Shown: positions 2 through 22,010, numbered from the stretch's first letter. The stretch: 43,474 nt of DNA from an uncultured Flavobacteriaceae bacterium (GCA_964609755.1 CAZSSZ010000001.1:1-43474); one strand, 5' to 3'. Translations and numbers: made by a program. Notes: generated by a model from the letters alone, not told the origin.

Positions 2-2677
2 AGCGGACTTAACATTCGCATTCGTGGGATTACTACAAATGGAAATAACGCCCCCCTAATTTTGGTTGATGGAAACCGTATTGGTGACCTAAACGCCCTT
101 AACCCAAATGACATTGAAAGCATTAATGTGCTTAAAGATGCCACGGCGGGTATTTATGGCGTACAGGCTGCTAACGGGGTCATTTTGATAACCACCAAAT
201 CAGGAAGAAAAAATTCCGAATTGGATGTTCAAGTGGATACTTACACGGGACTTCAACTGACGAGCAAAAAACTGGATTTGATGGATTCGTACGACTTTGC
301 ACAATATGTAAACGATGCAAAAAACAAAACGGAGTTTTTTGTATATCCACAACAAGGTACCGACTGGCAAGACGAGGTGTTTGAAGTAGCGCCTATTTCG
401 GAAGTAAACGCCACAGTAAGTGGTGGAGGAGAAAAATCTGCTTATTCGTTTGGGGCAAGTTATTTAGACCAAGACGGTATTGTGGGCGGAAGTAAGAACA
501 ATTACGAACGCTTAACGGCTCGTATCAATTATCAATACGATATTTTGGATAACCTTAAAGTTACGGCTAACGCATTACATTTTAAGGCTACCAAACAAAA
601 CCTAGCGGAAGGCGGTATTGGCGCGGTACTTTACAATGCTGTAAACATCAACCCGACCATGCCGGTATATGATGAAAATGGTGCTTTTGCCTTAGCAAAT
701 GATATCTCACAAATTGAAATTATCAACCCGCTAGCGCAAATTGCGAATTCATATAGTACTGCGCGTACATCAAAGTGGTCAGGTCTTTTTGCATTAGAGT
801 ATGACTTTTGGGAAAACTTTACTGCCAAAACGCAGTTTAATATTAACCACGCTTCTGTTCTTGAAGATACTTTTAGACCAGAACAATATTACGGAACAGG
901 CAAATCTATTAACACGGTTAATTCTGTTGCTGAGTTAAGTGATTCAGACATCATAAATGAAGTAATTGATAATGGTGCCAATTATGACGACTGGACATTA
1001 GACAGTTATATCACGTATTCCAATTCCTTTAATGATGATCACTATTTAACCGTACTTTTAGGAACATCTTTATATCAAAATAAAGGTCTTTTCTTTGGAA
1101 ATACAGGAAGAACAACAACGGGAACAAATCAATTAGGGCAAACGGTTTGGGACGCAGGAATGACAATAGAACCCCGCTTTAATGCGGCAGCACTTGAGCG
1201 AGGTGATGATTGGTTTGACACGCGTCTGTCATCCGCGTTTGCGCGTGTGCAGTATAACTATAAAGGTAAATACCTTTTCTCTGGAGTTTTCCGAAGAGAT
1301 GTTTCTTCTCAGTTTTCTTCCGAAGATAACAGAAATGTGGGTTATTTCCCATCAGGTTCTATTGGATGGAATGTATCTGAGGAGGACTTTTTACAAAATG
1401 CGAATTGGATTTCAAATTTAAAACTACGCGCTAGTTATGGTGTGATTGGTAACGATCGGATTTCTTCATTTGCCTATTTAAGAAGATTAAATGGTTTGGC
1501 AACAGTTGATCCTGGAAACATTGATAAAATTACTGACCTTGTTTTTGGTAAGGCTCCTGGTAAACTTGATAACCCGTTTTTGAAATGGGAAGAGCAAGAA
1601 AACCTCAACGTGGGAATAGACTTAAGTTTATTCGACAATAAGCTTAGCTTAAGCGCAGATGTTTACCGCAAGAAAACAAAGGACTTATTATTAGAACCCC
1701 AAATTTCGGGTATAACCGGAAGTGGCGCACCAAGTTTTGTAAGCTTGAGTCCTTTTGTAAATGCTGGAACGGTTCAAAACCAAGGGATAGAGTTTTCATT
1801 GGGCTATAACGATAGCATAGGCGATGATTTTAGGTTTAACATCAATTATAACATGACCACCATTAACAACGAGGTGCTTTCACTCAATAATAGAACTACT
1901 CCTGTAGGTGGTGAATATGGTGTAGGAATTAGCCAAACAGGTATAACCCGTATGGCACCTGGTTTTGCACTAGGACATTACTACGGCTATAAAACAGATG
2001 GAATCTATCAAACTCAAACTGAAATCGATGCCTTAGACGCTGCTGCATTTGCACGACATGGGACAGATAAAAATGGTGATAAGGAAAAGTATAGCACTAT
2101 AGGTGAGATTGCTCCTGGTGACTTACGCTTTGTAGACACAAATGGTGATGGTCAAATTACTGCCGATGACCGTACAAATATTGGAGATCCAATCCCTGAT
2201 TTAGAAATGGGACTTAATATTGGGTTTACCTATAAAAACATTGATTTTAGCGCAAGTGCTTTTGCCTCTATAGGGCATGAGTTAGTACGCGATTATGAAC
2301 GTTCAGATTTATATGCCAATCGTGGCACCTATATGTTACGCAGATGGCAAGGTTCGGGAACAAGTAGTTCTGTACCAAGGGCTGTCAATGGAGCAAATGT
2401 AAACTCAGATTTCTTTAATGATTTCCATGTAGAAGACGCTTCCTATGTGCGTTTACAAAATGTTCAAATAGGATATAATTTAACCGACCTGCTTGGAGAG
2501 AATTCAAGTGTTGATAATTTCAGAATCTATGTGTCGGGGAACAATCTATTTACCATTACAGATTATAACGGCTACGATCCTTCTGCAAACAATGGAGACC
2601 CTCTAGGCGGAGGTATTGACAAAGGATTTTATCCGATAGCCTCTACCTATTTACTAGGTATTAACCTTAATTTTTAA
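2..2677 (+). CDS. SusC/RagA-type TonB-dependent outer-membrane glycan transporter, 5' end truncated by the window edge
   Basis: The frame is open from nt 2. Upstream of the listed TTG it reads SGLNIRIRGITTNGNNAPLILVDG..LNPNDIESINVLKDA, which is a TonB-dependent receptor plug motif. A long beta-rich remainder ends in a terminal Phe (..GINLNF). A SusD-like gene starts 5 nt downstream. Confidence 0.93.
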   Translation, partial: SGLNIRIRGITTNGNNAPLILVDGNRIGDLNALNPNDIESINVLKDATAGIYGVQAANGVILITTKSGRKNSELDVQVDTYTGLQLTSKKLDLMDSYDFAQYVNDAKNKTEFFVYPQQGTDWQDEVFEVAPISEVNATVSGGGEKSAYSFGASYLDQDGIVGGSKNNYERLTARINYQYDILDNLKVTANALHFKATKQNLAEGGIGAVLYNAVNINPTMPVYDENGAFALANDISQIEIINPLAQIANSYSTARTSKWSGLFALEYDFWENFTAKTQFNINHASVLEDTFRPEQYYGTGKSINTVNSVAELSDSDIINEVIDNGANYDDWTLDSYITYSNSFNDDHYLTVLLGTSLYQNKGLFFGNTGRTTTGTNQLGQTVWDAGMTIEPRFNAAALERGDDWFDTRLSSAFARVQYNYKGKYLFSGVFRRDVSSQFSSEDNRNVGYFPSGSIGWNVSEEDFLQNANWISNLKLRASYGVIGNDRISSFAYLRRLNGLATVDPGNIDKITDLVFGKAPGKLDNPFLKWEEQENLNVGIDLSLFDNKLSLSADVYRKKTKDLLLEPQISGITGSGAPSFVSLSPFVNAGTVQNQGIEFSLGYNDSIGDDFRFNINYNMTTINNEVLSLNNRTTPVGGEYGVGISQTGITRMAPGFALGHYYGYKTDGIYQTQTEIDALDAAAFARHGTDKNGDKEKYSTIGEIAPGDLRFVDTNGDGQITADDRTNIGDPIPDLEMGLNIGFTYKNIDFSASAFASIGHELVRDYERSDLYANRGTYMLRRWQGSGTSSSVPRAVNGANVNSDFFNDFHVEDASYVRLQNVQIGYNLTDLLGENSSVDNFRIYVSGNNLFTITDYNGYDPSANNGDPLGGGIDKGFYPIASTYLLGINLNF

Positions 2678-2682
2678 TCGTT

Positions 2683-4194
2683 ATGAAAAAATTACTAAAT
2701 ATTTTTATGTGTCTAACGCTAATTACAATAATTAGCTGTGACAGTTTTGTTGAAGTTGAGCCTTCAGGTCCTGTCGCTAACGACTTCTTTAAATCAGAAA
2801 AGGACTACAATGAAGCCCTTATTGGTGCATACGATATCCTACAGGCTACATACTGGAATACATTAGTTAGCGTAGTAGCTTCGGACGACTTTGCTGCTGG
2901 TGGAGACCCAGATACATACGATCAGCCCACACTACAAAATGTAAACCTAATGATACACTCTGAAAGAGATGAAAATCAGATACGGGATGTTTGGGGGCTA
3001 ATGTATGCGGGAATAAATAGAACCAACTATTTATTGGAAAACAAAGGCTTACTTGATTTTGCAGGTAAAGAACAAATTCTTGCAGAAGCATATTTTCTTC
3101 GTGCATACTACACTTTTGAGTTGGTAAAATTCTTTGGAAATGTGCCACTAAAAACAGAAACCCGAGACGGTGTACTACGTATGGTTGATGAGCGTGTGTT
3201 ATTTCAAGAAGAGTTTTCTATTGAACGCGTAGCAGATATCTCAACGGCATATAGTATTATTGAAGAAGATTTAAAGGAAGCGATTCCGAATCTTCCTGTT
3301 AGCCAAAGTTCTCCTTACAAAGCTACCAAAGGGGCTGCTCAAGCCCTGTTGGGTAAAGTCTATTTGTATCACGGAACCTATGATAGTGCCAAATTTGGCG
3401 AAGCGGCTACTGTCTTAGGCGATGTTATTTCTAGTAAAAAATACAGCTTAGCAACAGGTACTGACTATGAGGAACTCTTCGAGATTGGCGGCGAAAATGG
3501 TTCAGAGTCTGTTTTTGAGATTCAATATACCAGTGTTGAAGCCGCTACGTGGGAGTGTATTTCTTGTAGCCAAGGAACATACTTTGTCAAATTTAACGGA
3601 CCTCGTGATTTATCAGATAGTGTATTTGAAAATGGTTGGGGTTTTTGTTTGCCTTCTGTTGAGCTTTACGATTTGTTTGATGCTACTGATAAAAGACGGG
3701 ATGTTACGTTTTTTGATTTGAGGCAGAAAGACGCTAACGACTATGGTGTAACTAGAGACCACACAGGCCTAGCAAACAGAAAGTATATGCCTAGAAAGTT
3801 ACCTGCCAGAGCCGGTTCAGATCCGTTAAATTATGACAATAACTACCGTGCCATCCGCTATGCAGATGTATTGCTGATGGCAGCCGAAGCCGAAGCACAA
3901 AGTGGTGGAGCAAATGCTGAAGACTATTTAAACGAAGTGCGTGCTAGAGCCTATGGCGACAACAGCAATGATTACAGTGCTACCGAAGGTAGTCTGCTAG
4001 ATGCGATTTATACAGAAAGACGCAAAGAATTGGCAGGCGAAGGGCACCGTTTCTTTGACCTAGTACGCACCAAAAAAGCAGCCGCTGCAATTGACGGCTT
4101 TACCGAAAATAAAAATGAACTGTTCCCAATTCCGCTTATTGAGCTGAAGTTAGCAGAAGCGGTTGACCGTTGGAAACAAAATCCAGGATATTAA
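2683..4194 (+). CDS. SusD/RagB-family outer-membrane glycan-binding lipoprotein
   Basis: It has a lipoprotein signal (..LITIISC-D) and sits immediately after SusC. SusD-like features are present (..YFLRAYYTFELVKFFGNVPL.., ..ERRKELAGEGHRFFDLVR.., FPIP near the C-terminus). Size is 503 aa. Confidence 0.92.
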   Translation: MKKLLNIFMCLTLITIISCDSFVEVEPSGPVANDFFKSEKDYNEALIGAYDILQATYWNTLVSVVASDDFAAGGDPDTYDQPTLQNVNLMIHSERDENQIRDVWGLMYAGINRTNYLLENKGLLDFAGKEQILAEAYFLRAYYTFELVKFFGNVPLKTETRDGVLRMVDERVLFQEEFSIERVADISTAYSIIEEDLKEAIPNLPVSQSSPYKATKGAAQALLGKVYLYHGTYDSAKFGEAATVLGDVISSKKYSLATGTDYEELFEIGGENGSESVFEIQYTSVEAATWECISCSQGTYFVKFNGPRDLSDSVFENGWGFCLPSVELYDLFDATDKRRDVTFFDLRQKDANDYGVTRDHTGLANRKYMPRKLPARAGSDPLNYDNNYRAIRYADVLLMAAEAEAQSGGANAEDYLNEVRARAYGDNSNDYSATEGSLLDAIYTERRKELAGEGHRFFDLVRTKKAAAAIDGFTENKNELFPIPLIELKLAEAVDRWKQNPGY

Positions 4195-5759: not shown

Positions 5760-8700
5760 ATGATAAATATGAAAAACAAGGTTATAAAAGTACTCTTTTG
5801 CCTGCTGATGCTTCCGGCGTTTGCCCAAGTAGAGGTAGTGCAAAACAACAACGGCACCAAGCTCGTTGTTAATGGCGAGGATTTTTTCGTCAGTGGGATG
5901 AATTGGGACTATTTCCCAAGGGGTACCAACTATTCGTTTAGTCTTTGGAACCAGTCTGATGACTTTATCAAAGCAGCTCTCGATGCTGAAATGGGACTCC
6001 TAAAAAACATGGGCGTAAATACCATCAGAACTTATACGGGTATTCAGCCGCGCTGGATTCAGTATATCTATGAAAATTACGGGATATATACCATGCTTAA
6101 CCATTCTTTTGGGCGTTACGGACTAACACTCGACGGGGCGTGGGTTGCCGTTACCGATTATAGAAACCCAAAAGCACAAGAGCTTTTGATGGCAGAAGTA
6201 ACTGCCCTCGCACAGGAGTATAAAGACACCCCCGGATTGCTGTTGTTTTTGCTGGGTAACGAAAACAACTACGGTTTGTTTTGGGCAGGTGCCGAAACGG
6301 AAGACTTTCCTGACGAAGAAGACCAACGCCGCGAGGTGGGCGAAAAGCGTGGTAGACCCATGTATAAACTTATGAACGATGCCGCCAAAGCCATGAAGGC
6401 GATTGACGGTTCGCATCCGGTTGCCATCTGTAACGGGGACTTATTGTTCTTGGATATTATTGCACAAGAGTGTAAAGATGTAGATGTATACGGGACAAAT
6501 ATGTACCGCGGAATTTCGTTTGGCGACACCTTTGAGCGTGTCAAAAATGAGTATGGAAAACCGGTACTCTTTACCGAATTTGGTTCGGATGCCTTTAATG
6601 CGCTTTCCAACAAAGAAGACCAAAAAGCACAGGCCGAATACATGGTCGGGCAGTGGAAGGAAATTTATGCCAATGCTGCCGGATTAGGCAAAACAGGTAA
6701 TTCCTTAGGGGGATTCACCTTCCAATTTAGCGATGGCTGGTGGAAATACGGACAAACCGATAACTTAGAAGTTCACGACAACAACGCTTCATGGTCTAAT
6801 GGAGGCTACCAGTTTGATTACAAACTTGGACAAAACAACATGAATGAGGAGTGGTTTGGTATTTGCGCCAAAGGACCTTCAGATGCTCGTGGGTTATACG
6901 ATTTGTATCCCAGAGCTGCATACTATGCACTAAAACAAGCACACACACTAAATCCTTTTGCAGATAGTGTAGATGCTTCCTTTGTAGAAAATCACTTTGA
7001 CAACATTATGCTAATGGATGCGGTGCTTCGTGCCCGCGCGGATAAAGCCGCTCTTGGGGGAGGCGAAAAAGTTCGTTTGAGCAACCTTAGAGCAGAATTT
7101 ACTTCCTATAATACAGGAGGAACGTTGCTAACTACGCCTACCACACCTAACCCGGAAAGCAATACTTTTCCCGACCAGCTCGGCTTCGATCACATGCAGT
7201 CGTATTTTGTGGGGGTAGAGGGAAATCCTGCCCCGGGAATGCGCGCCGAGGTTAACGTAAATGTTTTGGGAAATGTTGCAACCAATCCTATTGATGAGAT
7301 TTTCTATGAAAATCGTGGGCGTGCACAACGCGTAAACACCCCCGATGGCGTGGTTACCCTAAACGATCCAAACAGAGTGCAGGTCTACAATGCCGAATTT
7401 GAGTGGAATGCCAAAAACTTCGATCTAAGAGGTTTTTACAGAACGGGGCATTATCACTGGGCGTATGAGGGTGATATCTTCAATTTGTATCCCGAAGCCT
7501 ATTATGGACCTAATCTAGACATCTATAACGGTGAAATTTTAGGTGCTGAACTTGACGCCAAAGGCGCACTTTCAGGGCTTAAGGCTGCTTTTGGTCCGCA
7601 ATTGTGGTGGGGTGCAAACCCAACCGTACTCCTAAAATATTCTAAAGACCTCTTTAAGTGGAAGGTAACAGGAATCTACCACAGAGACCTCAATACCAAT
7701 TTGGAATATGATGAAAGCGGTAGACGTATTTTGGATCAAAACCAACTTACTTCAGGGGTAATTCCGGCCTGGCCAACAGAACGTGCTACACTTGCGTTTG
7801 AAAGAACCTTTGGAAACGTTGGCATTACCCTTGGAGGAATTTGGGGCGGTAGCCCACTTAATGGAAGCGGGTTCCAAATGGTAGATAAAAACCTGCACGC
7901 GGTGTTGGTGGATAAAATCAACAGCGAGGATAACTGGGGCGCCAAAGCCAAAATCACTTATCAAAAAGGTAGATTTAACTGGTACGCACAAGGTTCCTAC
8001 ATGGGATTGGTTGCCAATGGTGGCGCAGACCAAACCAAAACCTTTACAGGGTGGAAACTTAAAGATTCAGGCAGTGGAAACATGACCAATGTCTTATCAG
8101 GATTCACGGTATTGACGGGCAATCTTCAAATTGCACCGAACTTTTTGTACCAAAAACCATTGGTTGACCCGATGCCAAACAATCCTTTTGGACCGGGAAG
8201 ACTGCGTAACGTCATTGACGACCCATTTGCAGTTCGTGGTGGAAACAGAGAAACCCTAGGTGGAGAAATCCTTTTCACGTTTGACCCAACTCCAGGCACT
8301 TGGATGTATGAGTGGAACAACGACATGATGGAGGATGCAAAATTTGCTATGAGTGCTGGCTTTGTGTTTAGACACTTGCCCACTACGCAAGATGCGCACA
8401 TTGGGTTTATGGCAAACCGTCAATTCTTTGCCTTTGGCCAAAGTACTCCTGCAGAAGACCTTTGGGAAGCACATGCCCGTATGGTGTCTAAGCTAAGCCC
8501 CGAATTGGGGATGATTGGAAATTTCTATTATGGAAATGGACAAGGTAATGGCGATTCAGACCGTACCATTACTCGTTTTGGAGGCGATATCAGAATGATT
8601 TATAAAAACATGAAAATGATTTCGCATGTTAAAGTTAACGACTGGGGTCCATTTGACTACCACCGTGACTTTAACCTTACGTTCCCATTACAGCTAATGC

Positions 8701-8924
8701 TAGACCTGTCTACTTCGCTTGGGAAGCAAAACTGGTTTGGTTTACCCAACACGCAAATTGGTATTCGTGGTACGTGGAGATCATACAATGAGCATAGCGG
8801 CAACAGATATGCGCCTATGGAAACTGCTGAATTTGCGAAAACGCCTATCATCAGTCCGGTTGGATTTCCAAATGGAACGGAATGGGAAATCAGAACATAC
8901 GTTCATATAAATATTGGCAAATAA
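5760..8924 (+). CDS. Secreted two-part protein: N-terminal clan GH-A (beta/alpha)8 glycosidase-like domain plus a ~650-aa beta-rich, outer-membrane-barrel-like C-terminal region
   Basis: It has an SPI-type signal peptide (..LLMLPAFA-QVE). The N-terminal ~400 aa carry a GH-A pattern: NTIRTY, LLGNENNY (Glu168, nt 6261-6263) and LFTEFGSDAF (Glu273, nt 6576-6578), about 105 residues apart. The remainder is Gly/aromatic-rich with many amphipathic alternating strands (AKAKITYQKGRFNWYAQGSY, GGEILFTFDP, FAMSAGFVFRHL, GGDIRMIYKNMKMISHVKVND, TEWEIRTYVHINIGK). The exact CAZy family was not determined; GH158 or GH5-like are possible. Confidence 0.6.
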   Translation: MINMKNKVIKVLFCLLMLPAFAQVEVVQNNNGTKLVVNGEDFFVSGMNWDYFPRGTNYSFSLWNQSDDFIKAALDAEMGLLKNMGVNTIRTYTGIQPRWIQYIYENYGIYTMLNHSFGRYGLTLDGAWVAVTDYRNPKAQELLMAEVTALAQEYKDTPGLLLFLLGNENNYGLFWAGAETEDFPDEEDQRREVGEKRGRPMYKLMNDAAKAMKAIDGSHPVAICNGDLLFLDIIAQECKDVDVYGTNMYRGISFGDTFERVKNEYGKPVLFTEFGSDAFNALSNKEDQKAQAEYMVGQWKEIYANAAGLGKTGNSLGGFTFQFSDGWWKYGQTDNLEVHDNNASWSNGGYQFDYKLGQNNMNEEWFGICAKGPSDARGLYDLYPRAAYYALKQAHTLNPFADSVDASFVENHFDNIMLMDAVLRARADKAALGGGEKVRLSNLRAEFTSYNTGGTLLTTPTTPNPESNTFPDQLGFDHMQSYFVGVEGNPAPGMRAEVNVNVLGNVATNPIDEIFYENRGRAQRVNTPDGVVTLNDPNRVQVYNAEFEWNAKNFDLRGFYRTGHYHWAYEGDIFNLYPEAYYGPNLDIYNGEILGAELDAKGALSGLKAAFGPQLWWGANPTVLLKYSKDLFKWKVTGIYHRDLNTNLEYDESGRRILDQNQLTSGVIPAWPTERATLAFERTFGNVGITLGGIWGGSPLNGSGFQMVDKNLHAVLVDKINSEDNWGAKAKITYQKGRFNWYAQGSYMGLVANGGADQTKTFTGWKLKDSGSGNMTNVLSGFTVLTGNLQIAPNFLYQKPLVDPMPNNPFGPGRLRNVIDDPFAVRGGNRETLGGEILFTFDPTPGTWMYEWNNDMMEDAKFAMSAGFVFRHLPTTQDAHIGFMANRQFFAFGQSTPAEDLWEAHARMVSKLSPELGMIGNFYYGNGQGNGDSDRTITRFGGDIRMIYKNMKMISHVKVNDWGPFDYHRDFNLTFPLQLMLDLSTSLGKQNWFGLPNTQIGIRGTWRSYNEHSGNRYAPMETAEFAKTPIISPVGFPNGTEWEIRTYVHINIGK
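6960..8921 (+). other. C-terminal beta-rich region of the 1054-aa protein (putative large beta-barrel), approximate boundaries
   Basis: Dyad-repeat hydrophobicity is seen in about 10-residue segments separated by short Gly/Asn/Asp turns. The region is rich in Tyr/Trp/Phe and Gly, and no catalytic motifs were recognised. Against a classical barrel, the last residue is Lys rather than an aromatic residue. Confidence 0.4.
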
Positions 8925-8938
8925 TAAATTAGGAAAAA

Positions 8939-10354
8939 ATGAAAAAATTTAAGTTTACATCAACGTTCACTCTAGCCGTTTTGGGCTTGGCTGCCGCAGT
9001 TGCGGTTAGCTGTGAACGCGGGTTTTCGGATGAAATTGCCTTGGCAACCTATCCTACAACCCCTGAAGTTTTTACAGATATTCCGGTAGGTCTTACAGAC
9101 GAATTTTTTGTGTCGTTTGACCCTGCCGATGGTGCCAATGTATATGGCTTTGGTACTGACGATAACGAAGCATACAAAGGAACTTCATCTATTCGCATTG
9201 AAGTCCCCGCACCCAACGACCCCAATGGGGGCTTTATTGGGGGGATTTTTCTCGATCGTGGAAATGGTAGAAATCTAACCGAATATGATGCTTTGACCTT
9301 TTGGGCAAAAGCCTCTAAGACAGGTACTGCTGGCTTGTTTGGTTTTGGCACCGATTTCCAAGGAGACAAATACGCTGCGGGAATTAGCGACATTACCCTT
9401 TCTACTGATTGGAAACAATATGTTATTCCCATTCCTGACCCTTCAAAACTGACCCAAGTAAAGGGAATGTTTGCCTTTTCGGCAGGAACGCAAGGAACAA
9501 ACGGTTTAGGCTTTACCATTTGGTTGGATGAAATTAAGTTTGAAAAATTGGGCACCATTGCGCAAGGAAGACCCGCCATTTTTGGTGGAGAGGACCTTAC
9601 GAAAACTGGTTTTATTGACGGTACTTTTGACGTAACAGGCACCCAAACACTAAACCATGCCGGCACGGATATCACTGTGAATGCTGCTTCGGGCTATTTT
9701 GATTTTGCATCATCAGAACTTACGGTAGCCCAAGTCAACGATCAGGGTAAAGTTACTGTTGTCAATAAAGGTGATGCCAAAATCACGGCTTCAATAGCTG
9801 GCGTTACCGCAAAAGGCTCATTGACGATTAATTCTTTGGGGAGGTTTAGTTTGCCCCCTGCTCCAACACATGAGGCAGCAAATGTAAAGTCGATTTTTAG
9901 TGATGCATATGAAAACGTTCCGATTGAATTCTATAACGGCTATTGGCAACCGTATCAAACTACTACTTCTGCGGATTTTGATGTCAATGGGGATAATATT
10001 CTCTCCTATGAAAACTTCAATTTTGTAGGGCATCAGTTTGGACAGCCAACAGTCGACGCCAGTGCCATGACGCACTTGCACCTTGATGTGTATGTACCAG
10101 GCACCTTAGATCCTGGAGCACAACTTAAAGTTACTATCAAAGACTTTGGCGCAGATGGTGTAGACAGTGCAGCAGATGACACTACGCAATCCTATACCAT
10201 TAATGCTTCGGATTTGGCAGCTGATGCTTGGAGCAGTATTGATATTCCATTGTCTTTATCTCCGCGTTCTAAGGTTGGACAACTTATCTATGAAAACAAT
10301 CAGACCAATCTGAAAAGTTTGCACATGGATAATGTCTTTTTCTACAAACAATAA
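8939..10354 (+). CDS. Multi-module surface glycan-binding lipoprotein (CBM-like, Big_2-like Ig domain, CBM-like)
   Basis: It has a lipoprotein signal (..AAAVAVSC-E). The N-terminal module is beta-sandwich-like (YDALTFWAKAS..WKQYVIPIP..IWLDEIKFEK). The central segment looks like bacterial Ig group 2 (VAQVNDQGKVTVVNKGDAKITASIAGVTAKGSLTI). The C-terminal module is also CBM-like (THLHLDVYVPG..VTIKDFG..WSSIDIPLS..MDNVFFYK). Confidence 0.65.
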   Translation: MKKFKFTSTFTLAVLGLAAAVAVSCERGFSDEIALATYPTTPEVFTDIPVGLTDEFFVSFDPADGANVYGFGTDDNEAYKGTSSIRIEVPAPNDPNGGFIGGIFLDRGNGRNLTEYDALTFWAKASKTGTAGLFGFGTDFQGDKYAAGISDITLSTDWKQYVIPIPDPSKLTQVKGMFAFSAGTQGTNGLGFTIWLDEIKFEKLGTIAQGRPAIFGGEDLTKTGFIDGTFDVTGTQTLNHAGTDITVNAASGYFDFASSELTVAQVNDQGKVTVVNKGDAKITASIAGVTAKGSLTINSLGRFSLPPAPTHEAANVKSIFSDAYENVPIEFYNGYWQPYQTTTSADFDVNGDNILSYENFNFVGHQFGQPTVDASAMTHLHLDVYVPGTLDPGAQLKVTIKDFGADGVDSAADDTTQSYTINASDLAADAWSSIDIPLSLSPRSKVGQLIYENNQTNLKSLHMDNVFFYKQ

Positions 10355-10369
10355 GCTAAAACCAACAAA

Positions 10370-11209
10370 ATGAATTTTAGAAAACATACATCTAAAGCCT
10401 TGCAAATGCTATCCCTTTTAGGGGTGGCTTTTGCTGTGGGTACATTTACAATAAGCTGCAACCCCGACGACACCCAAGTGGTGGCAAAATTCGACATCAT
10501 TACGATGCAAGACGAATTTGATATCGAAGGAGCACCCAACGATAAAATTTGGGGCTACGACATTGGTACGGGTACCAACGGTTGGGGTAACAACGAGCTG
10601 CAACATTACACGGACCGCTCCTCTAACGTTGAGGTAAAAGACGGGATGTTAAAAATCACTGCAGTTAAGGAAGCCTATGAAGGTGCTGCCTACACTTCAG
10701 CACGATTGCTGACCAAAGGAAAATTTGACCAAAAATACGGGCGTTTTGAGGCGCGTATCAAATTGCCTTGGGGACAAGGCATGTGGCCCGCATTTTGGCT
10801 TCTTGGCGCTGATTTTGACACGGCAGGCTGGCCCCATTGTGGCGAAATTGATATCATGGAAAACCGTGGGGCAGAACCTACTACAGTTAGCGGTACGGTG
10901 CATGGTCCTGGGTATTCAGCAGGAAATTCAGTTGGTAAGGAATTTTCACTTACCAGCGATCGTTTTGACACTGGGTTTCACATTTTTGGTATTGAGTGGG
11001 GCGAAGATTATATCAACTACTACGTAGATGATGTGTTGTACAATCAAATTACCCCTGCGGATGTTAATGGCGAATGGGTTTTTGACCAACCGTTTTTTAT
11101 TATCATCAACTTAGCTGTTGGAGGTAACTTTGGTGGTCCTCCAAACGACGCTACGGTTTTCCCTCAAGAAATGCTTGTTGATTACGTAAGAGTTTACGCT
11201 GCTGAATAA
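10370..11209 (+). CDS. GH16 endo-beta-1,3-glucanase (laminarinase) lipoprotein
   Basis: It has a lipoprotein signal (..GTFTISC-N). The GH16 catalytic motif is present (GEIDIME, ExDxxE type), together with NNELQHYT, WPAFWLLG and the LVDYVRVY tail. Confidence 0.9.
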   Translation: MNFRKHTSKALQMLSLLGVAFAVGTFTISCNPDDTQVVAKFDIITMQDEFDIEGAPNDKIWGYDIGTGTNGWGNNELQHYTDRSSNVEVKDGMLKITAVKEAYEGAAYTSARLLTKGKFDQKYGRFEARIKLPWGQGMWPAFWLLGADFDTAGWPHCGEIDIMENRGAEPTTVSGTVHGPGYSAGNSVGKEFSLTSDRFDTGFHIFGIEWGEDYINYYVDDVLYNQITPADVNGEWVFDQPFFIIINLAVGGNFGGPPNDATVFPQEMLVDYVRVYAAE

Positions 11210-11211
11210 CA

Positions 11212-12339
11212 ATGAAAATCACGTTTACACCTTTATTGTTTATTCTTTTGCTCATCGGTTGTGAGAAAGAAACCGTTTCCACAACCGATGACAAAAAACC
11301 TAGTGCACCTACCGAACTTTCGCTTGATATTACGCTTCAAGGTCAAGCAGCTAACCCTCATGGGGATGGCTCTGGCGTAGCCAATTTTAAAGCAACGGCT
11401 ACTGGCGCTTCTAGGTTTGATTTTAGAATTGATGAAGGCGTAGCCATGGAAAGTGGCAACGGCGAACTCGTACACGAATTTACCAAAGAAGGCACGCATA
11501 CCTATACCGTTACGGCTATTGCGTACTCAGACGAGAATCTTGCAGATTCTATTGCTAAAAACGTTCGTGTTCGTGTGGCACCACCTTCCAAATATGGGAT
11601 GACCCTTGTGTGGGCAGATGAGTTTGATTATGAAGGGGCTGTTGACGTTAACAAATGGCACCATCAAGTGATACCAATTGCAGGTAACAATTGGGCAAAT
11701 AATGAAGAGCAGCATTATACCGACAGAACTGATAATTCGTATGTGAGCGATGGCACTTTGAAAATTGTTGCCAAAAAAGAAAACTATCAGTTTAGAGGTA
11801 TTACCAAAAATTACACCTCGGCACGACTGAATTCCAAATACATATTCAAATATGGTCGTGTAGATATCAGTGCAAAACTTCCCGCTGCGGGAGGCACTTG
11901 GCCTGCTTTATGGACCTTGGGTGCGAACATAGATGAAATAGGAAACTATCATGGCAATACCTACGGAAGCGTTGGTTGGCCTAGCTGTGGTGAGATCGAT
12001 ATCATGGAACAGAACGGCTGGGACAAAAACCATCTGATTGGGCATTTGCATTGGGGCGACACCCAAACAGGAGCCTATGAAAACAAAGGTGGAACAAAGG
12101 TTGTGTCGAACACCACAACGACTTTTAACCTGTATTCGCTGATATGGAACGAAAACGAAATCAAAATTTTGTTTAACGACGAAGTGGTGTATGAAACCGA
12201 AAACACGAGTGCAATGCCCTATGATAATCCACATTATTTGTTGTTTAATATCGCTATGGGCGGTACCCTTGGCGGGGCTATCCCTAACGATTTTACGCAA
12301 GCCGTAATGGAGGTGGATTATATCCAAATTTATCAATAA
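11212..12339 (+). CDS. PKD-like domain plus GH16 endo-beta-1,3-glucanase lipoprotein
   Basis: It has a lipoprotein signal (..LLLIGC-E) and an N-terminal PKD-like segment (..EGTHTYTVTAIAY). The GH16 domain shows NNEEQHYT, WPALWTLG, GEIDIMEQ and MEVDYIQIY. It starts 2 nt after the previous GH16 gene. Confidence 0.88.
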   Translation: MKITFTPLLFILLLIGCEKETVSTTDDKKPSAPTELSLDITLQGQAANPHGDGSGVANFKATATGASRFDFRIDEGVAMESGNGELVHEFTKEGTHTYTVTAIAYSDENLADSIAKNVRVRVAPPSKYGMTLVWADEFDYEGAVDVNKWHHQVIPIAGNNWANNEEQHYTDRTDNSYVSDGTLKIVAKKENYQFRGITKNYTSARLNSKYIFKYGRVDISAKLPAAGGTWPALWTLGANIDEIGNYHGNTYGSVGWPSCGEIDIMEQNGWDKNHLIGHLHWGDTQTGAYENKGGTKVVSNTTTTFNLYSLIWNENEIKILFNDEVVYETENTSAMPYDNPHYLLFNIAMGGTLGGAIPNDFTQAVMEVDYIQIYQ

Positions 12340-12367
12340 CCAAATCGTAAAATGTGTATCTCCTCTT

Positions 12368-15300
12368 ATGTTATTAGATGAAAAAAATATCAGCTGCCTA
12401 AGGCAGGAAAAAGAAATACTAAACGAAACAATTGAAATGACACAAGACGACGCGATTTATATTGGCGCGAATCCCACGCAATTTTCAACTAAAGAAGTAA
12501 AAGGCGAGGAAATAACCCGAAACGGACAAACCTTTTACAAAATTTCAAATGCAGACTGCATGCGTCCGTTTTTTATGAGTATTGTTAGCAATTCCGACCA
12601 TTGGATGTTTATATCAAGTAATGGAAGTTTGTCTGCGGGAAGAAAAAATAGCGACTACGCTCTTTTCCCATACTACACGGATGATAAAATCACGGAGGCT
12701 GCCGAAACTACAGGAAGTAAAAGTATTTTTATTGTAACCAAATCGGGTAAAAAGCACTTGTGGGAGCCCTTTTCCGTAAGGCAAAATGGCATGTACCATA
12801 CCACCCGAAATTTGTACAAAAATACCTACGGAAACAAAATTGTTTTTGAAGAAATCAACCACGACTTAGCCCTTACGTTTACCTACGAATGGAACTCTAG
12901 CGAAAAATTTGGGTTTGTTCGCAAGGCGTGTATTTCCAACAACGGAGCCGAGCGCATTTCAGTTAATGTCTTGGATGGCATCCAAAATATCTTGCCCTAC
13001 GGCGTTGAGCCGGCATTGCAAAGTGCAAGCAGTAACCTTGTAGACGCCTATAAAAAGTGCGAATTGGAAGAAGATTCAGGCGTTGGAATTTATTCGTTGA
13101 GTGCCATTATTGTAGACAAAGCCGAGCCGAGCGAGGCACTTAAAGCCAATGTGGTGTGGTCCCTCGGGCTTGACAATGCTAAAAAACTTATTTCTTCTTT
13201 GCAATTGGATGATTTCCGCAGGGGTCATGGCGTAATGCAAGAGGTAGACATCCGTGCGGAAAAAGGCGCATACTTTTTAAACGATGAAATTACCTTACAG
13301 CCAGATGCTTCAGAAAGTTGGATGTTGGTTGCGAATGTAAATCAAACCATGTCGGACATTGTTCAAATCAAGGAAAAATTGCAAAACCATACGGCTTTGC
13401 AAGAGACTATTTTAGCAGATATTGAAGCAGGGTCTGATCATTTGGTGGCGTTGGTTGCCGCCGCCGACGGACTGCAAATGACCAACGACCGTCTTCGCAA
13501 CATTCGTCACTTTGCCAACACCATGTTCAACATTATGCGAGGTGGTATTTTTGATGACAACTACCACATTGAAAAAGCAGATTTTACGACTTATATCGCC
13601 AATGCAAATCGAAAAGTATATCGCTTAAAAGAAGCTATTTTAGCAGCACTTCCTGAGGTTTTTGACGTTAAACATCTTAAAGAAATTGCCGCAAAGGATG
13701 ACAACCCAAACTTTAAACGCTTGTGTTTTGAGTACTTGCCATTAAAGTTTAGCCGACGTCACGGTGACCCAAGCCGTCCGTGGAACAAATTCTCCATCAA
13801 CACCCGAAATGAAGAGGGGGGAAAAATCTTAGACTACGAGGGAAACTGGCGTGATATTTTCCAAAACTGGGAAGCCTTGGCACACTCCTATCCAGAGTTT
13901 ATTGAGGGGATGATTCACAAGTTTTTAAACGCTACTACTTTCGATGGCTACAACCCGTATCGGGTAACCAAAGGTGGTTTTGATTGGGAAACCATAGAGC
14001 CAGACAACCCGTGGTCGTATATTGGCTATTGGGGCGATCATCAAATCATCTACCTACTTAAATTCTTGGAGTTTATTGAGGATCATTATCCCAATACACT
14101 TGCTGATTATTTCAATCAAGATTTGTTTGTGTATGCCAACGTGCCTTACCGCATCAAGAGTTACGAGCAAATTTTAAAAGATCCAAAAAACACCATTGAT
14201 TTTGATTTTGAGCGCGAAGAAAACATTCACTTTAAGCGTGAGGAAATCGGAGTAGACGGAGCCTTGCTTCGCGACAATACTGTATTTATTTACAAGGTAA
14301 ATTTCATAGAGAAAATCTTGGCTACAGTACTGGCAAAAATGTCAAACTTTATCCCCGAGGGCGGTATTTGGATGAACACCCAACGCCCCGAATGGAACGA
14401 TGCCAACAACGCGCTTGTAGGCAACGGTGTTTCTATGGTAACCCTGTATTACTTACGTCGTTTTTTACGTTTCTTCGAAACGGTTGTTGATAAATCCGAT
14501 TGGAATAATATCCATATTTCTAAGGAGCTACGCGCGTTTTTTATGCGTGTTACTACGGCTTTGGAACAACACAAAGAACTTCTTGGATCAAGCATTTCGG
14601 ATGTCGATAAAAAGCGCATTATGGATGCTTTGGGCAAAGCAGGAAGCGATTACCGAAACACAATTTACGACAAGCGTTTTTCGGGTGACAAAGAGGAAAT
14701 TTCGAAAGATGATTTAGTGTCATTTTTGGAGGTGTCACGTGCCTTTTTGGAGCATTCTATTGAGGCAAACAAACGTGAAGATAAGCTGTATCACGCCTAC
14801 AATTTGATGACAATCAATAACGACAATTCTGTTCGCATTTCACATTTACCCGAAATGTTAGAAGGTCAAGTGGCAGTACTTAGTTCCGGCTATTTGTCTG
14901 CCAAAGAAAACCTAGAAGTGCTTGATGGACTAAAAGCAAGCGCACTGTTTAGACCTGACCAATACAGCTATGTATTATATCCGAACAAGGAACTTCCGCG
15001 TTTTGTCAACAAAAACACTATTCCGAAAGAAAAAGTGGAAACATCACCTCTGCTAAAAAAACTCATTGCCGATGGCAATACACAAGTGCTTTCTAAAGAT
15101 GCAAAAGGGGAATACCACTTTAACGGGAACTTCAATAATGTGGACAGCTTGCGCGAAGCCTTGCAAAATCTTCCGGAGCAGTACCGCGCTTTAGCAACAG
15201 ATGAAACCGCTTATTTGGAGCAGGTTTTTGAAGCTATTTTCGACCACAAATCCTTTACGGGTCGCTCGGGTACTTTCTTCGGATATGAAGGATTAGGCTC

Positions 15301-15898
15301 TATTTACTGGCACATGGTGTCTAAGCTGCTTTTGGCGGTTTACGAAATTACACGTGATGCCATTGCTGCAAAGGAAGATCCCGTGCTGATTGGAAACTTA
15401 TTTGACCATTATTTTGAAATTAATGCTGGAATTGGTGCACACAAATCACCTAAACTGTACGGGGCATTCCCAACAGATCCATATTCACATACCCCTGGCG
15501 GAAAAGGCGCACAGCAGCCTGGAATGACTGGACAGGTAAAAGAAGATATCTTAAGCCGATTCGGAGAATTGGGTATTCGCATTTCAAATGGCGTACTTGG
15601 GTTTGACCCTACCATTTTGCGCAGTGAAGAATTTTTGACCGAACCACAAACATTTAATTATGTCAGCGTTACCGGAGAAAAAACTGCTATTGCACTAGAA
15701 AAAGACACCTTGGCATTCACGTATTGTCAGGTGCCTATTATTTACAAAAAATCAAAAACGGAAGGTATTGAGGTCGTGCTTCAATCGGGAGAAGTACAAA
15801 CATTTCCCGAGAACACATTGGATGTATCCCTTAGTACTGCCCTCTTTCAAAGGAGTAACGCCATTTACAAAATCACTGTTTCTGTTTTGAAAGAATAA
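12368..15898 (+). CDS. Signal-less GH94/GH149-like beta-1,3-glucan (laminari-oligosaccharide) phosphorylase
   Basis: The 1176-aa protein has no signal peptide. It carries a GH94-clan-like catalytic-Asp motif, RPEWNDANNAL (Asp678, nt 14399-14401), and phosphate-site-like segments (RRHGDPSRPWNKF; HTPGGKGAQQPGMTGQ). Size and a beta-1,3-glucan PUL context fit the described GH149 family. An alternative start at Met24 (MTQDD..) is possible. Confidence 0.6.
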   Translation: MLLDEKNISCLRQEKEILNETIEMTQDDAIYIGANPTQFSTKEVKGEEITRNGQTFYKISNADCMRPFFMSIVSNSDHWMFISSNGSLSAGRKNSDYALFPYYTDDKITEAAETTGSKSIFIVTKSGKKHLWEPFSVRQNGMYHTTRNLYKNTYGNKIVFEEINHDLALTFTYEWNSSEKFGFVRKACISNNGAERISVNVLDGIQNILPYGVEPALQSASSNLVDAYKKCELEEDSGVGIYSLSAIIVDKAEPSEALKANVVWSLGLDNAKKLISSLQLDDFRRGHGVMQEVDIRAEKGAYFLNDEITLQPDASESWMLVANVNQTMSDIVQIKEKLQNHTALQETILADIEAGSDHLVALVAAADGLQMTNDRLRNIRHFANTMFNIMRGGIFDDNYHIEKADFTTYIANANRKVYRLKEAILAALPEVFDVKHLKEIAAKDDNPNFKRLCFEYLPLKFSRRHGDPSRPWNKFSINTRNEEGGKILDYEGNWRDIFQNWEALAHSYPEFIEGMIHKFLNATTFDGYNPYRVTKGGFDWETIEPDNPWSYIGYWGDHQIIYLLKFLEFIEDHYPNTLADYFNQDLFVYANVPYRIKSYEQILKDPKNTIDFDFEREENIHFKREEIGVDGALLRDNTVFIYKVNFIEKILATVLAKMSNFIPEGGIWMNTQRPEWNDANNALVGNGVSMVTLYYLRRFLRFFETVVDKSDWNNIHISKELRAFFMRVTTALEQHKELLGSSISDVDKKRIMDALGKAGSDYRNTIYDKRFSGDKEEISKDDLVSFLEVSRAFLEHSIEANKREDKLYHAYNLMTINNDNSVRISHLPEMLEGQVAVLSSGYLSAKENLEVLDGLKASALFRPDQYSYVLYPNKELPRFVNKNTIPKEKVETSPLLKKLIADGNTQVLSKDAKGEYHFNGNFNNVDSLREALQNLPEQYRALATDETAYLEQVFEAIFDHKSFTGRSGTFFGYEGLGSIYWHMVSKLLLAVYEITRDAIAAKEDPVLIGNLFDHYFEINAGIGAHKSPKLYGAFPTDPYSHTPGGKGAQQPGMTGQVKEDILSRFGELGIRISNGVLGFDPTILRSEEFLTEPQTFNYVSVTGEKTAIALEKDTLAFTYCQVPIIYKKSKTEGIEVVLQSGEVQTFPENTLDVSLSTALFQRSNAIYKITVSVLKE

Positions 15899-15944
15899 CA
15901 TTTAACTATTAAAATCATCTGCGGATATTGATTTCCCATAAGGT

Positions 15945-17219
15945 ATGAGCACTATGAAAATTTTCGGAAAGTTTGGATTTTTCACAGTAGCGCTTTGGGT
16001 TTTGGTATCCTGTAACACACAGCATTTGAGTATGAAAAGTAAAACAGCAGCAGAAATTCTAGGAAATCCGGACTACACGGCAATTTCCTATGGCGGATAT
16101 CGCACTACATTACGTGAGAATCAACCCACTATTGCGGAATTAAAAGATGACATGAAAATTCTTCACGCTATGGGGATTCGTATTATCAGAACCTATAATG
16201 TGCATCTGCCACAGGCAGAAAACATACTCAAGGCTATTTCGGAACTCAAAAAAGAGGATTCGGATTTTGAGATGTATGTGATGCTGGGCGCGTGGATAGA
16301 TTGTCTTAACGCATGGACTGAAAAAGTGGTAAATCACAACGTGGAAAGCCCTCGTAACGAAGAAGAAATCGCGAAGGCCGTTGCACTTGCCAATCAGTAC
16401 CCTGACATTGTGAAAGTACTTGCGGTGGGTAACGAAGCCATGGTAAAATGGGCGACAAGCTATTATGTGCAGCCTAGTGTTATTTTAAAATGGGTGAATC
16501 ACTTGCAAGACCTTAAAAAGAAGAACAAACTCCCAAAAGACGTGTGGATTACCAGCTCTGATAATTTCGCTTCGTGGGGCGGTGGAGACACCGCTTATCA
16601 CAATACCGATTTGGAGGCCTTAATTGCAGCAGTCGACTACATTTCTGTGCACACTTATCCCTTTCATGATACGCACTACAATCCCGGTTTTTGGGAAATT
16701 ACAGCTGAAAATGCAGTCAACAAAACCCAGCGAGAACTTATCGAGGAAGCCATGTTGCGGGCTCGGGACTATGCGATTTCGCAATTCAATAGCGTTAAAA
16801 AGTACATGCAAGATTTGGGGGTAGACAAACCCATTCACATTGGCGAAACAGGCTGGGCTACGGTTTCAAACGGCTACTACGGAAGAAAAGGATCCCATGC
16901 GGCAGACCAATACAAACAAGCGTTGTATTATAAGCGTATTGGCGAGTGGGCAAAGGAAAATAAGGTTGCCTGTTTTTATTTTGAAGCCTTTGATGAGCCT
17001 TGGAAAGAAGCGCATAACCCCAAAGGTTCTGAAAATCATTTTGGACTTTTCACCGTAGATGGCAAAGCAAAATATGCCCTTTGGGATTTGGTTAATAAGG
17101 GTGTTTTTAAGGGATTAACTCGAAACGGAAAACCCATTGGAAAAACCTTTAAGGGGAATAGCAAAAACCTCTATATCTCTGTGTTGCCCCCAAACATTTT
17201 AGAACCCAACATGAACTGA
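15945..17219 (+). CDS. GH17-like (clan GH-A) beta-1,3-glucanase lipoprotein
   Basis: It has a lipoprotein signal (..WVLVSC-N). TIM-barrel GH17-type motifs are present: IRIIRTYN, LAVGNEAMVKW (acid/base region), IHIGETGWAT (nucleophile region) and FYFEAFDEPWK. Confidence 0.7.
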   Translation: MSTMKIFGKFGFFTVALWVLVSCNTQHLSMKSKTAAEILGNPDYTAISYGGYRTTLRENQPTIAELKDDMKILHAMGIRIIRTYNVHLPQAENILKAISELKKEDSDFEMYVMLGAWIDCLNAWTEKVVNHNVESPRNEEEIAKAVALANQYPDIVKVLAVGNEAMVKWATSYYVQPSVILKWVNHLQDLKKKNKLPKDVWITSSDNFASWGGGDTAYHNTDLEALIAAVDYISVHTYPFHDTHYNPGFWEITAENAVNKTQRELIEEAMLRARDYAISQFNSVKKYMQDLGVDKPIHIGETGWATVSNGYYGRKGSHAADQYKQALYYKRIGEWAKENKVACFYFEAFDEPWKEAHNPKGSENHFGLFTVDGKAKYALWDLVNKGVFKGLTRNGKPIGKTFKGNSKNLYISVLPPNILEPNMN

Positions 17220-17221
17220 CC

Positions 17222-18706: not shown

Positions 18707-18716
18707 ATCAATACCC

Positions 18717-21065: not shown

Positions 21066-21070
21066 TAAAA

Positions 21071-21982: not shown

Positions 21983-22010
21983 TTATAGCCATTAACACAA
22001 GGTATTCCCT

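Follow-up and report, generated by a model that had tools for sequence, protein, structure and literature searches.

Introduction

Laminarin ranks among the largest marine fluxes of fixed carbon, and a gene in a laminarin polysaccharide utilization locus (PUL) of an uncultured Flavobacteriaceae bacterium may bear on how fragments of this glucan cross the outer membrane. The gene (the target) occupies positions 5,760 to 8,924 of a 43,474-nucleotide (nt) stretch (GCA_964609755.1 CAZSSZ010000001.1:1-43474; here called the window), and its product joins an N-terminal glycosidase to a C-terminal region of ~620 amino acids (aa). An earlier note on this DNA had proposed a possible enzyme-porin; the idea is supported as far as computation reaches, i.e., by an intact signature of glycoside hydrolase (GH) clan GH-A and by a predicted outer membrane protein (OMP) barrel. 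The fusion is a widespread new architectural variant, in which a predicted new OMP family is combined with a GH158-like glucanase. On balance, we favor the reading that it is a channel through which laminari-oligosaccharides pass independently of TonB and to which a glucanase is tethered, probably on the periplasmic side. Full-text literature searches gave no account of a glycosidase fused to a barrel in laminarin loci, and PUL papers show the gene as "GH2" (PMC13188888, PMC11345257).

The features of the target are as follows (pLDDT, predicted local distance difference test; AF2, AlphaFold2).

5760..8924, plus strand: open reading frame (ORF) of 1,054 aa with an ATG start.
5760..5825, plus strand: signal peptide of the signal peptidase I (SPI) type, aa 1-22, cleaved between AFA and Q23 (first nucleotide after the site, 5826; sequence reading and Q-rule).
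5826..6950, plus strand: clan GH-A (beta/alpha)8 domain, aa 23-397, GH158/GH157-like, predicted retaining beta-1,3-glucanase (Pfam, PDB profile, Foldseek, and pLDDT).
6261..6263, plus strand: codon of Glu168, in the N167-E168 motif after beta4, predicted acid/base (invariant in 126/126).
6576..6578, plus strand: codon of Glu273, in TEFG at the end of beta7, predicted nucleophile (invariant in 126/126; aligned with the TEFG of GH158 9oro).
6951..7070, plus strand: linker from the catalytic domain to strand 1, aa 398-437, with two helices (406-414 and 418-432; DSSP, pLDDT 92-97).
7071..8921, plus strand: predicted outer-membrane beta-barrel module, aa 438-1054, ~26 antiparallel strands (AF2, Foldseek, turn/loop pattern, and beta-signal of homologues).
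8283..8345, plus strand: 21-residue excursion that connects strands 18 and 19 on the side of the short turns, aa 842-862, DPTPGTWMYEWNNDMMEDAKF (invariant length).

The N-terminal half is a predicted GH158-like glucanase

The N-terminus of the target reads MINMKNKVIKVLFCLLMLPAFA followed, across the cleavage site, by QVEVV, and it carries an A-x-A cleavage motif; no lipobox was found in it, the residue at -1 of Cys14 being Phe. Gln23 is invariant among 26 flavobacterial homologues, which fits the Q-rule of Bacteroidetes, i.e., a Gln after the cleavage site of SPI substrates (PMC5837995, PMC10653852). Because of the A-x-A site, the lack of a lipobox, and the invariant Gln23, we assign the signal peptide to the SPI type; the earlier description of a 1,054-aa protein with a cleavable SPI signal rather than a lipoprotein signal is thereby borne out at the level of sequence reading.

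The (beta/alpha)8 pattern read from the sequence reappears in the AF2 model as a predicted alternation of strands and helices over aa 24 to 395 (pLDDT, mostly >90). GNE (aa 166 to 168) and TEFG (aa 272 to 275) place E168 and E273 105 residues apart, as had been pointed out. In all 126 fused homologues, which come from several phyla, R90, N167-E168, Y249, E273, and W327 are invariant, and the catalytic Glu pair is thus kept throughout the family alignment. Judged from these residues, the N-terminal domain is a catalytically intact, retaining clan GH-A enzyme.

Family assignment is less direct. The sole significant Pfam match of the target is PF02836 (GH2_C triosephosphate isomerase [TIM] barrel; E = 1e-6 to 7.5e-8; 28.6 to 32.3 bits, cut-off 21; aa 73 to 303). 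The sugar-binding and Ig-like beta-sandwich domains that precede the TIM barrel in GH2 enzymes were not detected by Pfam, and the TIM barrel of the AF2 model sets in ~20 residues past the signal peptide. A canonical GH2 identity was rejected on the lack of these domains. When the family profile was compared with PDB sequences, GH158 came first (9oro, E = 3.5e-7; 6pal, E = 8.7e-6), ahead of GH2 beta-galactosidases (about 1e-4); the match to GH158 spans aa 137 to 275 only, and the single target sequence matches 9oro weakly (E = 0.09). A Foldseek search of the PDB with the confident AF2 model likewise placed GH158 at the top (9oro and 6pal; E = 3e-14 to 1e-13), followed by GH157 (9fz9 and 9g5g, the latter with laminaribiose; E = 6e-12), before GH2 glucuronidases and beta-mannanases; GH1 enzymes are also among the glycosidase matches. 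Identity to GH158 and GH157 in the Foldseek alignments is ~14%. The guess of GH158 made in the earlier note is therefore the best available one, as far as profile and predicted structure can indicate. The nearest characterized relatives of the domain are endo-beta-1,3-glucanases, at this ~14% identity, and the enzyme is likely to be specific for beta-1,3-glucan.

The C-terminal half is predicted to form an outer-membrane barrel

The final AF2 input was an alignment of 148 sequences (23 to 90% identity) gathered in three homologue searches; a first run with 26 sequences at 73 to 90% identity had given a pLDDT of 56 and was not used for fold search. With the larger alignment, the mean pLDDT rose to 89.7 and the predicted TM score (pTM) to 0.83. 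The model has, in order, a TIM barrel, two linker helices, and 26 strands of 6 to 18 residues in hairpin succession (DSSP). The high pTM suggests that the two domains may dock in a defined way. The segments singled out from the sequence as strand-like coincide with strands of this confident model (GGDIRMIYKN and MKMISHVKVND with strands 22 and 23, and TEWEIRTYVHINIGK with the last strand), and the predicted strand number agrees with the proposal of a barrel of 20 or more strands, larger than that of an autotransporter.

All of the listed Foldseek matches other than glycosidases are outer-membrane barrels. Those with a probability of 1.00 include BtuB3 (8p98; E = 8e-10), C. jejuni MOMP (5ldt), PfeA (5nc3), 8bmx, a BenF-like porin (3jty), OccAB3 (5dl7), and OccD1 (4foz); a B. 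thetaiotaomicron B12 transporter is also among the matches at this probability. The barrels matched thus comprise TonB-dependent transporters, MOMP, and porins of the OprD/Occ type. The connections between strands show the asymmetry of short turns and long loops: on one face they typically have 2 to 6 residues (median, about 2 to 5) and hardly vary in length within the family (standard deviation [sd], 0.47), apart from two that have 21 and 12 residues, and on the other face they are variable, and the mean of the median lengths is 18.9 (sd, 2.6). The strands are two-sided, one face being hydrophobic and poor in charges and the other polar. We regard this amphipathicity as supportive only, since a soluble sandwich would look alike.

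Composition proved less telling than had been supposed. The C-terminal half is neither distinctively rich in Gly (10.9% versus 9.5% in the N-terminal half) nor enriched in aromatic residues (F+W+Y, 12.6% versus 14.3%). Of the supposed alternation of hydrophobic and polar residues, a modest enrichment stands, ~2 sd over shuffled sequences, and the strict pattern is confined to 4.0% of 10-residue windows (shuffles, 1.8 +/- 1.0%).

No Pfam or NCBIfam family matched the C-terminal half, in agreement with the statement that it holds no recognizable catalytic or carbohydrate-binding module (CBM) motif. With the target and 28 further barrel-only sequences (29 in total), Pfam gave no match at E <= 1, including the porin, Plug, and TonB_dep_Rec families, and the barrel profile gave no match to PDB sequences at E <= 10. 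Known soluble CBM, Ig, or propeller domains, named beforehand as what would speak against a barrel, are thus absent among family matches, and the fold predicted in their stead is OMP-like.

Two known classes of barrel were rejected as identities. A TonB-dependent transporter, in which a 22-strand barrel encloses an N-terminal plug with a TonB box, was discarded for lack of a Plug or TonB_dep_Rec match and because stand-alone members of the family leave no room for a plug. The known sugar porins (LamB, OprB, OprD/ChiP, and KdgM) were discarded for lack of a Pfam match among the 29 sequences at E <= 1.

The C-termini differ among lineages. In the gammaproteobacterial group, 104 of 116 sequences end in Phe within Y-x-Y-x-F, the classical beta-signal of the machinery for beta-barrel assembly (BAM); in the myxococcal group, the last residue is L, I, or M. 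For the target and 120/120 close relatives, the ending is ...YVHINIGK. The C-terminal Lys, which had been raised as a caveat, is thus a flavobacterial ending only. Taking the model, the fold matches, and the homologues together, we consider it very likely that the C-terminal ~620 aa are a transmembrane outer-membrane beta-barrel, of a family that lies outside the domain databases.

Fused and stand-alone members of the family

The target retrieved >5,400 database matches, and thousands of marine bacteria carry the gene; in species-representative genomes, relatives are encoded by at least 577 matching stretches. When aa 400 to 1054 were used as the query, an exhaustive search yielded 504 representative clusters; most full-length clusters have the fused architecture (~1,000 to 1,100 aa), and an additional set consists of proteins of ~570 to 615 aa. 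The named taxa include Gammaproteobacteria (stand-alone and fused), Myxococcota, Desulfuromonadaceae, Cloacimonadota, and Rhodothermales, and every match with a taxon named in its source belongs to a diderm lineage. Database labels for the family are "glycosidase," "GH2 TIM barrel-domain containing," "beta-galactosidase," and "hypothetical."

Some members are longer. P0259 (1,218 aa) has a CBM_4_9 domain N-terminal of the glycosidase-barrel core; that the enzyme side can carry a carbohydrate-binding module is relevant to the face at which the enzyme lies. The ~350 extra residues of P0124 (1,351 aa) have no Pfam match, and P0455 (1,377 aa) is another long member.

In the stand-alone barrels (575 to 600 aa), the signal peptide (ending in A and followed by RGPDLPVE) leads to strand 1 within ~8 residues, and for this reason they have no plug, TonB box, or linker. 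In both of the stand-alone loci examined (L001 and L002; one belongs to Marinobacterium sp. xm-a-152, the other to a metagenome), the barrel gene is flanked by an SBP_bac_5/ATP-binding cassette (ABC) importer for oligosaccharides, accompanied by a LacI regulator, on one side and by a GH16 laminarinase gene on the other. This is the usual place for the gene of a substrate-specific outer-membrane channel.

The family has 20 invariant columns, all of which lie in the barrel module, mostly in connections between strands, and are common to the fused and stand-alone forms. Such conservation points to a function intrinsic to the barrel, which might be, e.g., a sugar-lining constriction. The most conserved motif of the barrel family is the excursion at aa 842 to 862, on the presumed periplasmic face of the 2- to 6-residue turns. 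It is 21 residues long in all 148 sequences, with a mean conservation of 0.73; D842 and E858 are invariant, and P843, T844, P845, W852, D859, and A860 are nearly so, in both forms.

Four fused loci from outside Bacteroidota were compared. Their gene orders (MFS, major facilitator superfamily; T9SS, type IX secretion system) are as follows.

L083: giant GH16, fused gene, lipoprotein, GH149, Entner-Doudoroff genes, GH30.
L084: GH16, MFS, GH1, fused gene, lipoproteins, MFS, GH16, ROK regulator.
L085: GH30, MFS, GH16, GntR-type regulator, fused gene, small protein, GH16 with T9SS tail.
L086: GH16, GH3, GH26, CBM4_9 protein, GH30, fused gene, small protein, GH149, ABC importer.

These are beta-glucan operons, and none of the four has a TonB-dependent transporter (TBDT) or SusCD pair within 10 kb of the fused gene. 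The gammaproteobacterial type I GH149 clusters were described as having no outer-membrane transporter in the GH149 paper (PMC5827456).

Next after the fused gene, all four loci encode a lipoprotein of ~200 to 216 aa (L083:13003-13629, L084:13224-13826, L085:13120-13743, and L086:13099-13749). The four are homologous (E = 1e-13 to 1e-50), with lipoboxes and an NPxNPF...FYLW.T.LA...GExQYF motif, and Pfam gave no match to them. No counterpart was found among the window ORFs with a hidden Markov model (HMM) or in 80 flavobacterial loci with tblastn, and both this lipoprotein and a separate GH-A gene are absent from the two stand-alone-barrel loci. The fused protein may have in this lipoprotein a partner, a cap, or a plug; by analogy, the pairing of barrel and lipoprotein recalls SusC/SusD and LptD/LptE.

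The flavobacterial laminarin locus

The neighbors of the target in the window are as follows.

62..4194, plus strand: SusC-like gene (62-2677, cut by the window edge) and SusD-like gene (2683-4194); Pfam Plug fragment, SusD_RagB, and SusD-like_3.
4220-5659, plus strand: p479, a 479-aa, lipoprotein-like protein in the position of SusE, with an internal tandem duplication.
8939..10354, plus strand: p471, a lipoprotein with a signal peptidase II signal (..AVAVSC) and a weak Big_2 match, 14 nt after the target stop.
10370..24026, plus strand: rest of the PUL, i.e., GH16, GH16, GH149, GH17, GH30, MFS-GH17 fusion, GH17, and GH3 (Pfam; GH149 via 6hq6).
12368-15898, plus strand: GH149 beta-1,3-oligosaccharide phosphorylase, 1,176 aa (PDB 6hq6, 1,576 bits, nearly full length).
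18717-21065, plus strand: MFS_2-GH17 fusion, 782 aa, with GH17 C-terminal, of the FbGH17B type (Pfam).

The conventional SusCD pair mentioned in the earlier note is indeed upstream of the target, as identified by Pfam. The N-terminus of the SusC-like ORF matches the last part of Plug only; the gene is therefore cut by the left window edge, and its TTG start is an artefact. The two repeats of p479 (4724-5023 and 5261-5560; 300 nt each) have a DNA identity of 92%, which suggests that a CBM-like module was recently duplicated or underwent gene conversion. Only 4 of 52 related loci were found to have a counterpart that covers at least half of p479.

Conservation was counted in those flavobacterial genome loci that have full flanks, 52 in number. 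All 52 contain the target, p471, and GH16; GH149 occurs in 50/52 and GH17 in 49/52, and the order target, p471, GH16, GH16, GH149, GH17, GH30 is largely kept; the PUL type that holds the target is the standard flavobacterial laminarin locus. p471 directly follows the target in 51 of the loci, and the remaining one has GH16 genes between them. It has no match among PDB sequences and probably binds glycans at the cell surface, like the CBM-bearing proteins described for laminarin PULs (bioRxiv 10.1101/2023.09.07.556657). Unrelated to the ~205-aa lipoproteins, p471 takes their place after the fused gene in flavobacterial loci.

The 1,176-aa GH149 protein has no Pfam match and no evident signal peptide. 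A GH149 copy that is 42% identical to it lies two genes past the fused gene in the gammaproteobacterium-like L083, and the pairing of the fused gene with GH149 thus crosses phyla. With the MFS_2-GH17 fusion, one PUL contains two fusions of a transporter to a glycosidase, one of the inner membrane and a putative one of the outer membrane.

A proposed mechanism and the points against it

Among the genes compared here, the barrel is the best candidate for the outer-membrane passage of laminari-oligosaccharides, given the stand-alone forms in importer/GH16 loci, the absence of a TBDT near the fused genes, and the invariant residues shared by the two forms. We consider it fairly likely that the barrel acts as a channel, and about equally so that the enzyme lies on the periplasmic side. 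The fused protein would be exported by Sec and cleaved by SPI, after which BAM would insert the C-terminal ~620 residues as a large monomeric barrel of ~26 strands, with the long conserved loops folded over or into the lumen. GH16 endo-laminarinases would cut laminarin extracellularly, and the resulting beta-1,3(1,6)-gluco-oligosaccharides would diffuse through the barrel independently of TonB. At the periplasmic exit, the tethered glucanase (~375 residues, E168/E273) would trim the chains and thereby keep the gradient directed inward. Through inner-membrane MFS or ABC importers, the short oligosaccharides would then reach GH149 in the cytoplasm.

The position of the enzyme follows from the predicted topology. 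Because 26 is an even number, both ends of the barrel would be on one face; strand 1 starts on the short-turn face, which would put the linker and the catalytic domain there, and by the general rule for OMPs this face is periplasmic. In LptD, BamA, PgaA, and BcsC, which are barrels with N-terminal domains, the domain is on the periplasmic side. The word "secreted" in the earlier title may thus be wrong if it was meant as surface-exposed, as the predicted topology favors the periplasm.

Several points weigh against this mechanism. Strand 1 is immediately preceded by two helices that look like the linker spanning the pore of an autotransporter, and the enzyme could accordingly lie at the surface. 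SusCD is already present in the flavobacterial PUL, which makes it necessary to explain why import should have a second route. With 26 strands, a barrel that is open would leak; a gate is needed, and none was identified. The invariant 21-residue excursion on the supposed periplasmic face is left unexplained by the model. With respect to the fold, the TM scores to OMP barrels are modest (TMt = 0.35 to 0.40), because the strand numbers differ from those of solved OMPs, and the C-terminus of the target itself (...INIGK) is non-aromatic. The closure of the barrel (strand 1 with strand 26), the strand count (24 versus 26), the lumen, and the position of the enzyme were read from DSSP and Foldseek, and a direct-coupling analysis of closure and registry, run with a reduced alphabet, yielded gap artefacts or noise (effective number of sequences [Meff], ~166 to 182). 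With respect to the substrate, the PF02836 model is generic for the clan, and the assignment rests on the laminarin PUL context (GH16, GH17, GH30, and GH149) together with relatives at ~14% identity.

A bolder version of the channel reading is put forward tentatively and is, in our judgment, somewhat doubtful: the fused protein would be a TonB-independent translocon made of a single polypeptide, its very large barrel admitting sizeable branched laminarin fragments, and hydrolysis by the glucanase at the periplasmic mouth would make passage one-way. If so, it would provide an energy-free "selfish" uptake route, parallel to SusCD in Flavobacteriia and the sole outer-membrane route in Gammaproteobacteria, Myxococcota, and other diderm loci without a TonB-dependent transporter. 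The barrel would moreover represent a new OMP fold family and the glycosidase, probably, a new GH family.

Alternative explanations

The first alternative is that the enzyme is displayed on the cell surface, i.e., that the linker threads the lumen as in an autotransporter and the glucanase outside feeds the same barrel, as a covalent "mini-utilisome." The order of passenger, helices, and C-terminal barrel is that of a type Va autotransporter, and the helices at 406-414 and 418-432, which are confidently modeled, end 5 residues before strand 1. Outside Bacteroidota, anchoring by a barrel would stand in for lipoprotein export. The linker is weakly conserved between phyla, however, and the stand-alone barrels do without a linker, hence the lumen needs none. 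The number of strands (~26 versus 12) and the lack of a Pfam autotransporter match also speak against display, and the loci already have GH16 enzymes with secretion signals, large multidomain architectures of the secreted type, or T9SS tails. To our knowledge, there is no precedent for a 45-kDa TIM barrel that crosses the membrane in this way. BuGH158, the nearest characterized relative, is described as a cell-surface glycosidase (PMC7157763), which counts in favor of display. We consider surface display unlikely overall, and a classical type Va autotransporter was rejected (no PF03797 match; ~26 strands versus 12).

A second possibility is that the barrel is real and occluded, carries nothing, and merely tethers a periplasmic or surface glucanase. 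The conductance of the barrel is so far a prediction, its numerous long, ordered, and conserved loops could fill the lumen, and the flavobacterial PUL has SusCD. The stand-alone barrels argue to the contrary: with nothing to anchor, they keep the invariant loop residues and the position of a channel gene in ABC-importer/GH16 operons. Moreover, ~620 residues would be a costly anchor where a lipid tail would serve, and the four fused loci outside Bacteroidota are without another outer-membrane transporter within 10 kb. An anchor without transport therefore appears quite improbable.

A third reading, the caveat of the earlier note itself, takes the C-terminal region as a soluble beta-rich array (CBM/Ig beta-sandwiches or a beta-solenoid) on a secreted or periplasmic glycosidase. 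The neighbors p471 and p479 are beta-rich, binding-type proteins, and amphipathic strands do not discriminate between the two. Against this stand the 29 barrel-only members, which have no CBM, Ig, or propeller match; the 26 consecutive hairpin-connected strands, with listed non-glycosidase Foldseek matches that are all OMP barrels; the terminal Y-x-Y-x-F of the gammaproteobacterial group (104/116); and the exclusively diderm origin of the taxon-named matches. With an OMP-like model, no soluble family match, and a beta-signal in homologues, this reading was rejected as very improbable.

Least probable of all is that the barrel secretes a beta-glucan exopolysaccharide that a periplasmic hydrolase trims, as in BcsC/BcsZ and PgaA/PgaB: proteins of the BcsC/PgaA type have this layout, with the periplasmic domain first and the barrel at the C-terminus, and the family is present in Myxococcota, but export was rejected because all seven contexts examined are catabolic (PUL, importers, GH149, GH3/GH1/GH30, Entner-Doudoroff pathway, and LacI/GntR/ROK regulators) and no glycosyltransferase or synthase gene is among the genes listed in them.

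Implications and comparison with known systems

If the fused protein is a channel with a tethered glucanase, current models of laminarin uptake miss an outer-membrane component, and the family provides a candidate for the missing outer-membrane transporter of the gammaproteobacterial GH149 clusters (PMC5827456). A large new OMP family and a likely new GH family would then be open to structural and enzymological study.

The enzyme half shares with GH158 and GH157 enzymes (BuGH158, 6pal; GH158(Pro), 9oro; and LaGH157, 9g5g) the GH-A TIM barrel, the N-E acid/base, the TEFG-type nucleophile, and the setting in a beta-1,3-glucan utilization locus. It differs from them in its ~14% identity, in a profile match restricted to aa 137 to 275, and in scoring as a GH2-type TIM barrel in Pfam. 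We know of no described GH158 or GH157 enzyme with a membrane barrel.

The barrel half resembles LamB/ScrY, ChiP, CymA, and KdgM/NanC in the proposed TonB-independent passage of oligosaccharides and in its catabolic operons with an importer and a LacI-type regulator. It has no sequence relationship to these porins, has ~26 strands rather than 12 to 18, and is usually fused to an enzyme. Like SusCD and "utilisomes," the system would bring together an outer-membrane barrel, a partner lipoprotein, and a glycosidase for one glycan in a PUL setting. Unlike SusCD, the target has neither a plug nor a TonB-dependent receptor match, and hence no sign of energy coupling; its enzyme is covalently fused rather than being a separate lipoprotein, and the family reaches well beyond Bacteroidota.

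The arrangement of an N-terminal functional domain and a C-terminal outer-membrane barrel has parallels in other systems. LptD is also a 26-strand barrel, its N-terminal domain is periplasmic, and it is paired with a lipoprotein (LptE), and in autotransporter esterases (EstA) a functional domain is fused to a barrel. Cyc2 is a fused cytochrome-porin that likewise combines a functional domain with a barrel (PMC8406198). The target shows no sequence similarity to Cyc2 (16 strands), autotransporters (12 strands), or LptD (lipid export), and its cargo and chemistry would be different.

A further parallel has a copy in this same PUL. FbGH17B, an MFS-GH17 fusion from Formosa, is active on laminarin (Unfried et al. 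2018, PMC6246565). In both proteins, a transporter, predicted in the case of the target, is covalently joined to a laminarin glycosidase, so that hydrolysis would be coupled to membrane passage. The FbGH17B fusion belongs to the inner membrane, is alpha-helical, and carries its enzyme at the C-terminus; the target would be its outer-membrane counterpart with an enzyme of another family. If this is true, hydrolysis would be covalently coupled to passage at both membranes, which would look like a design principle.

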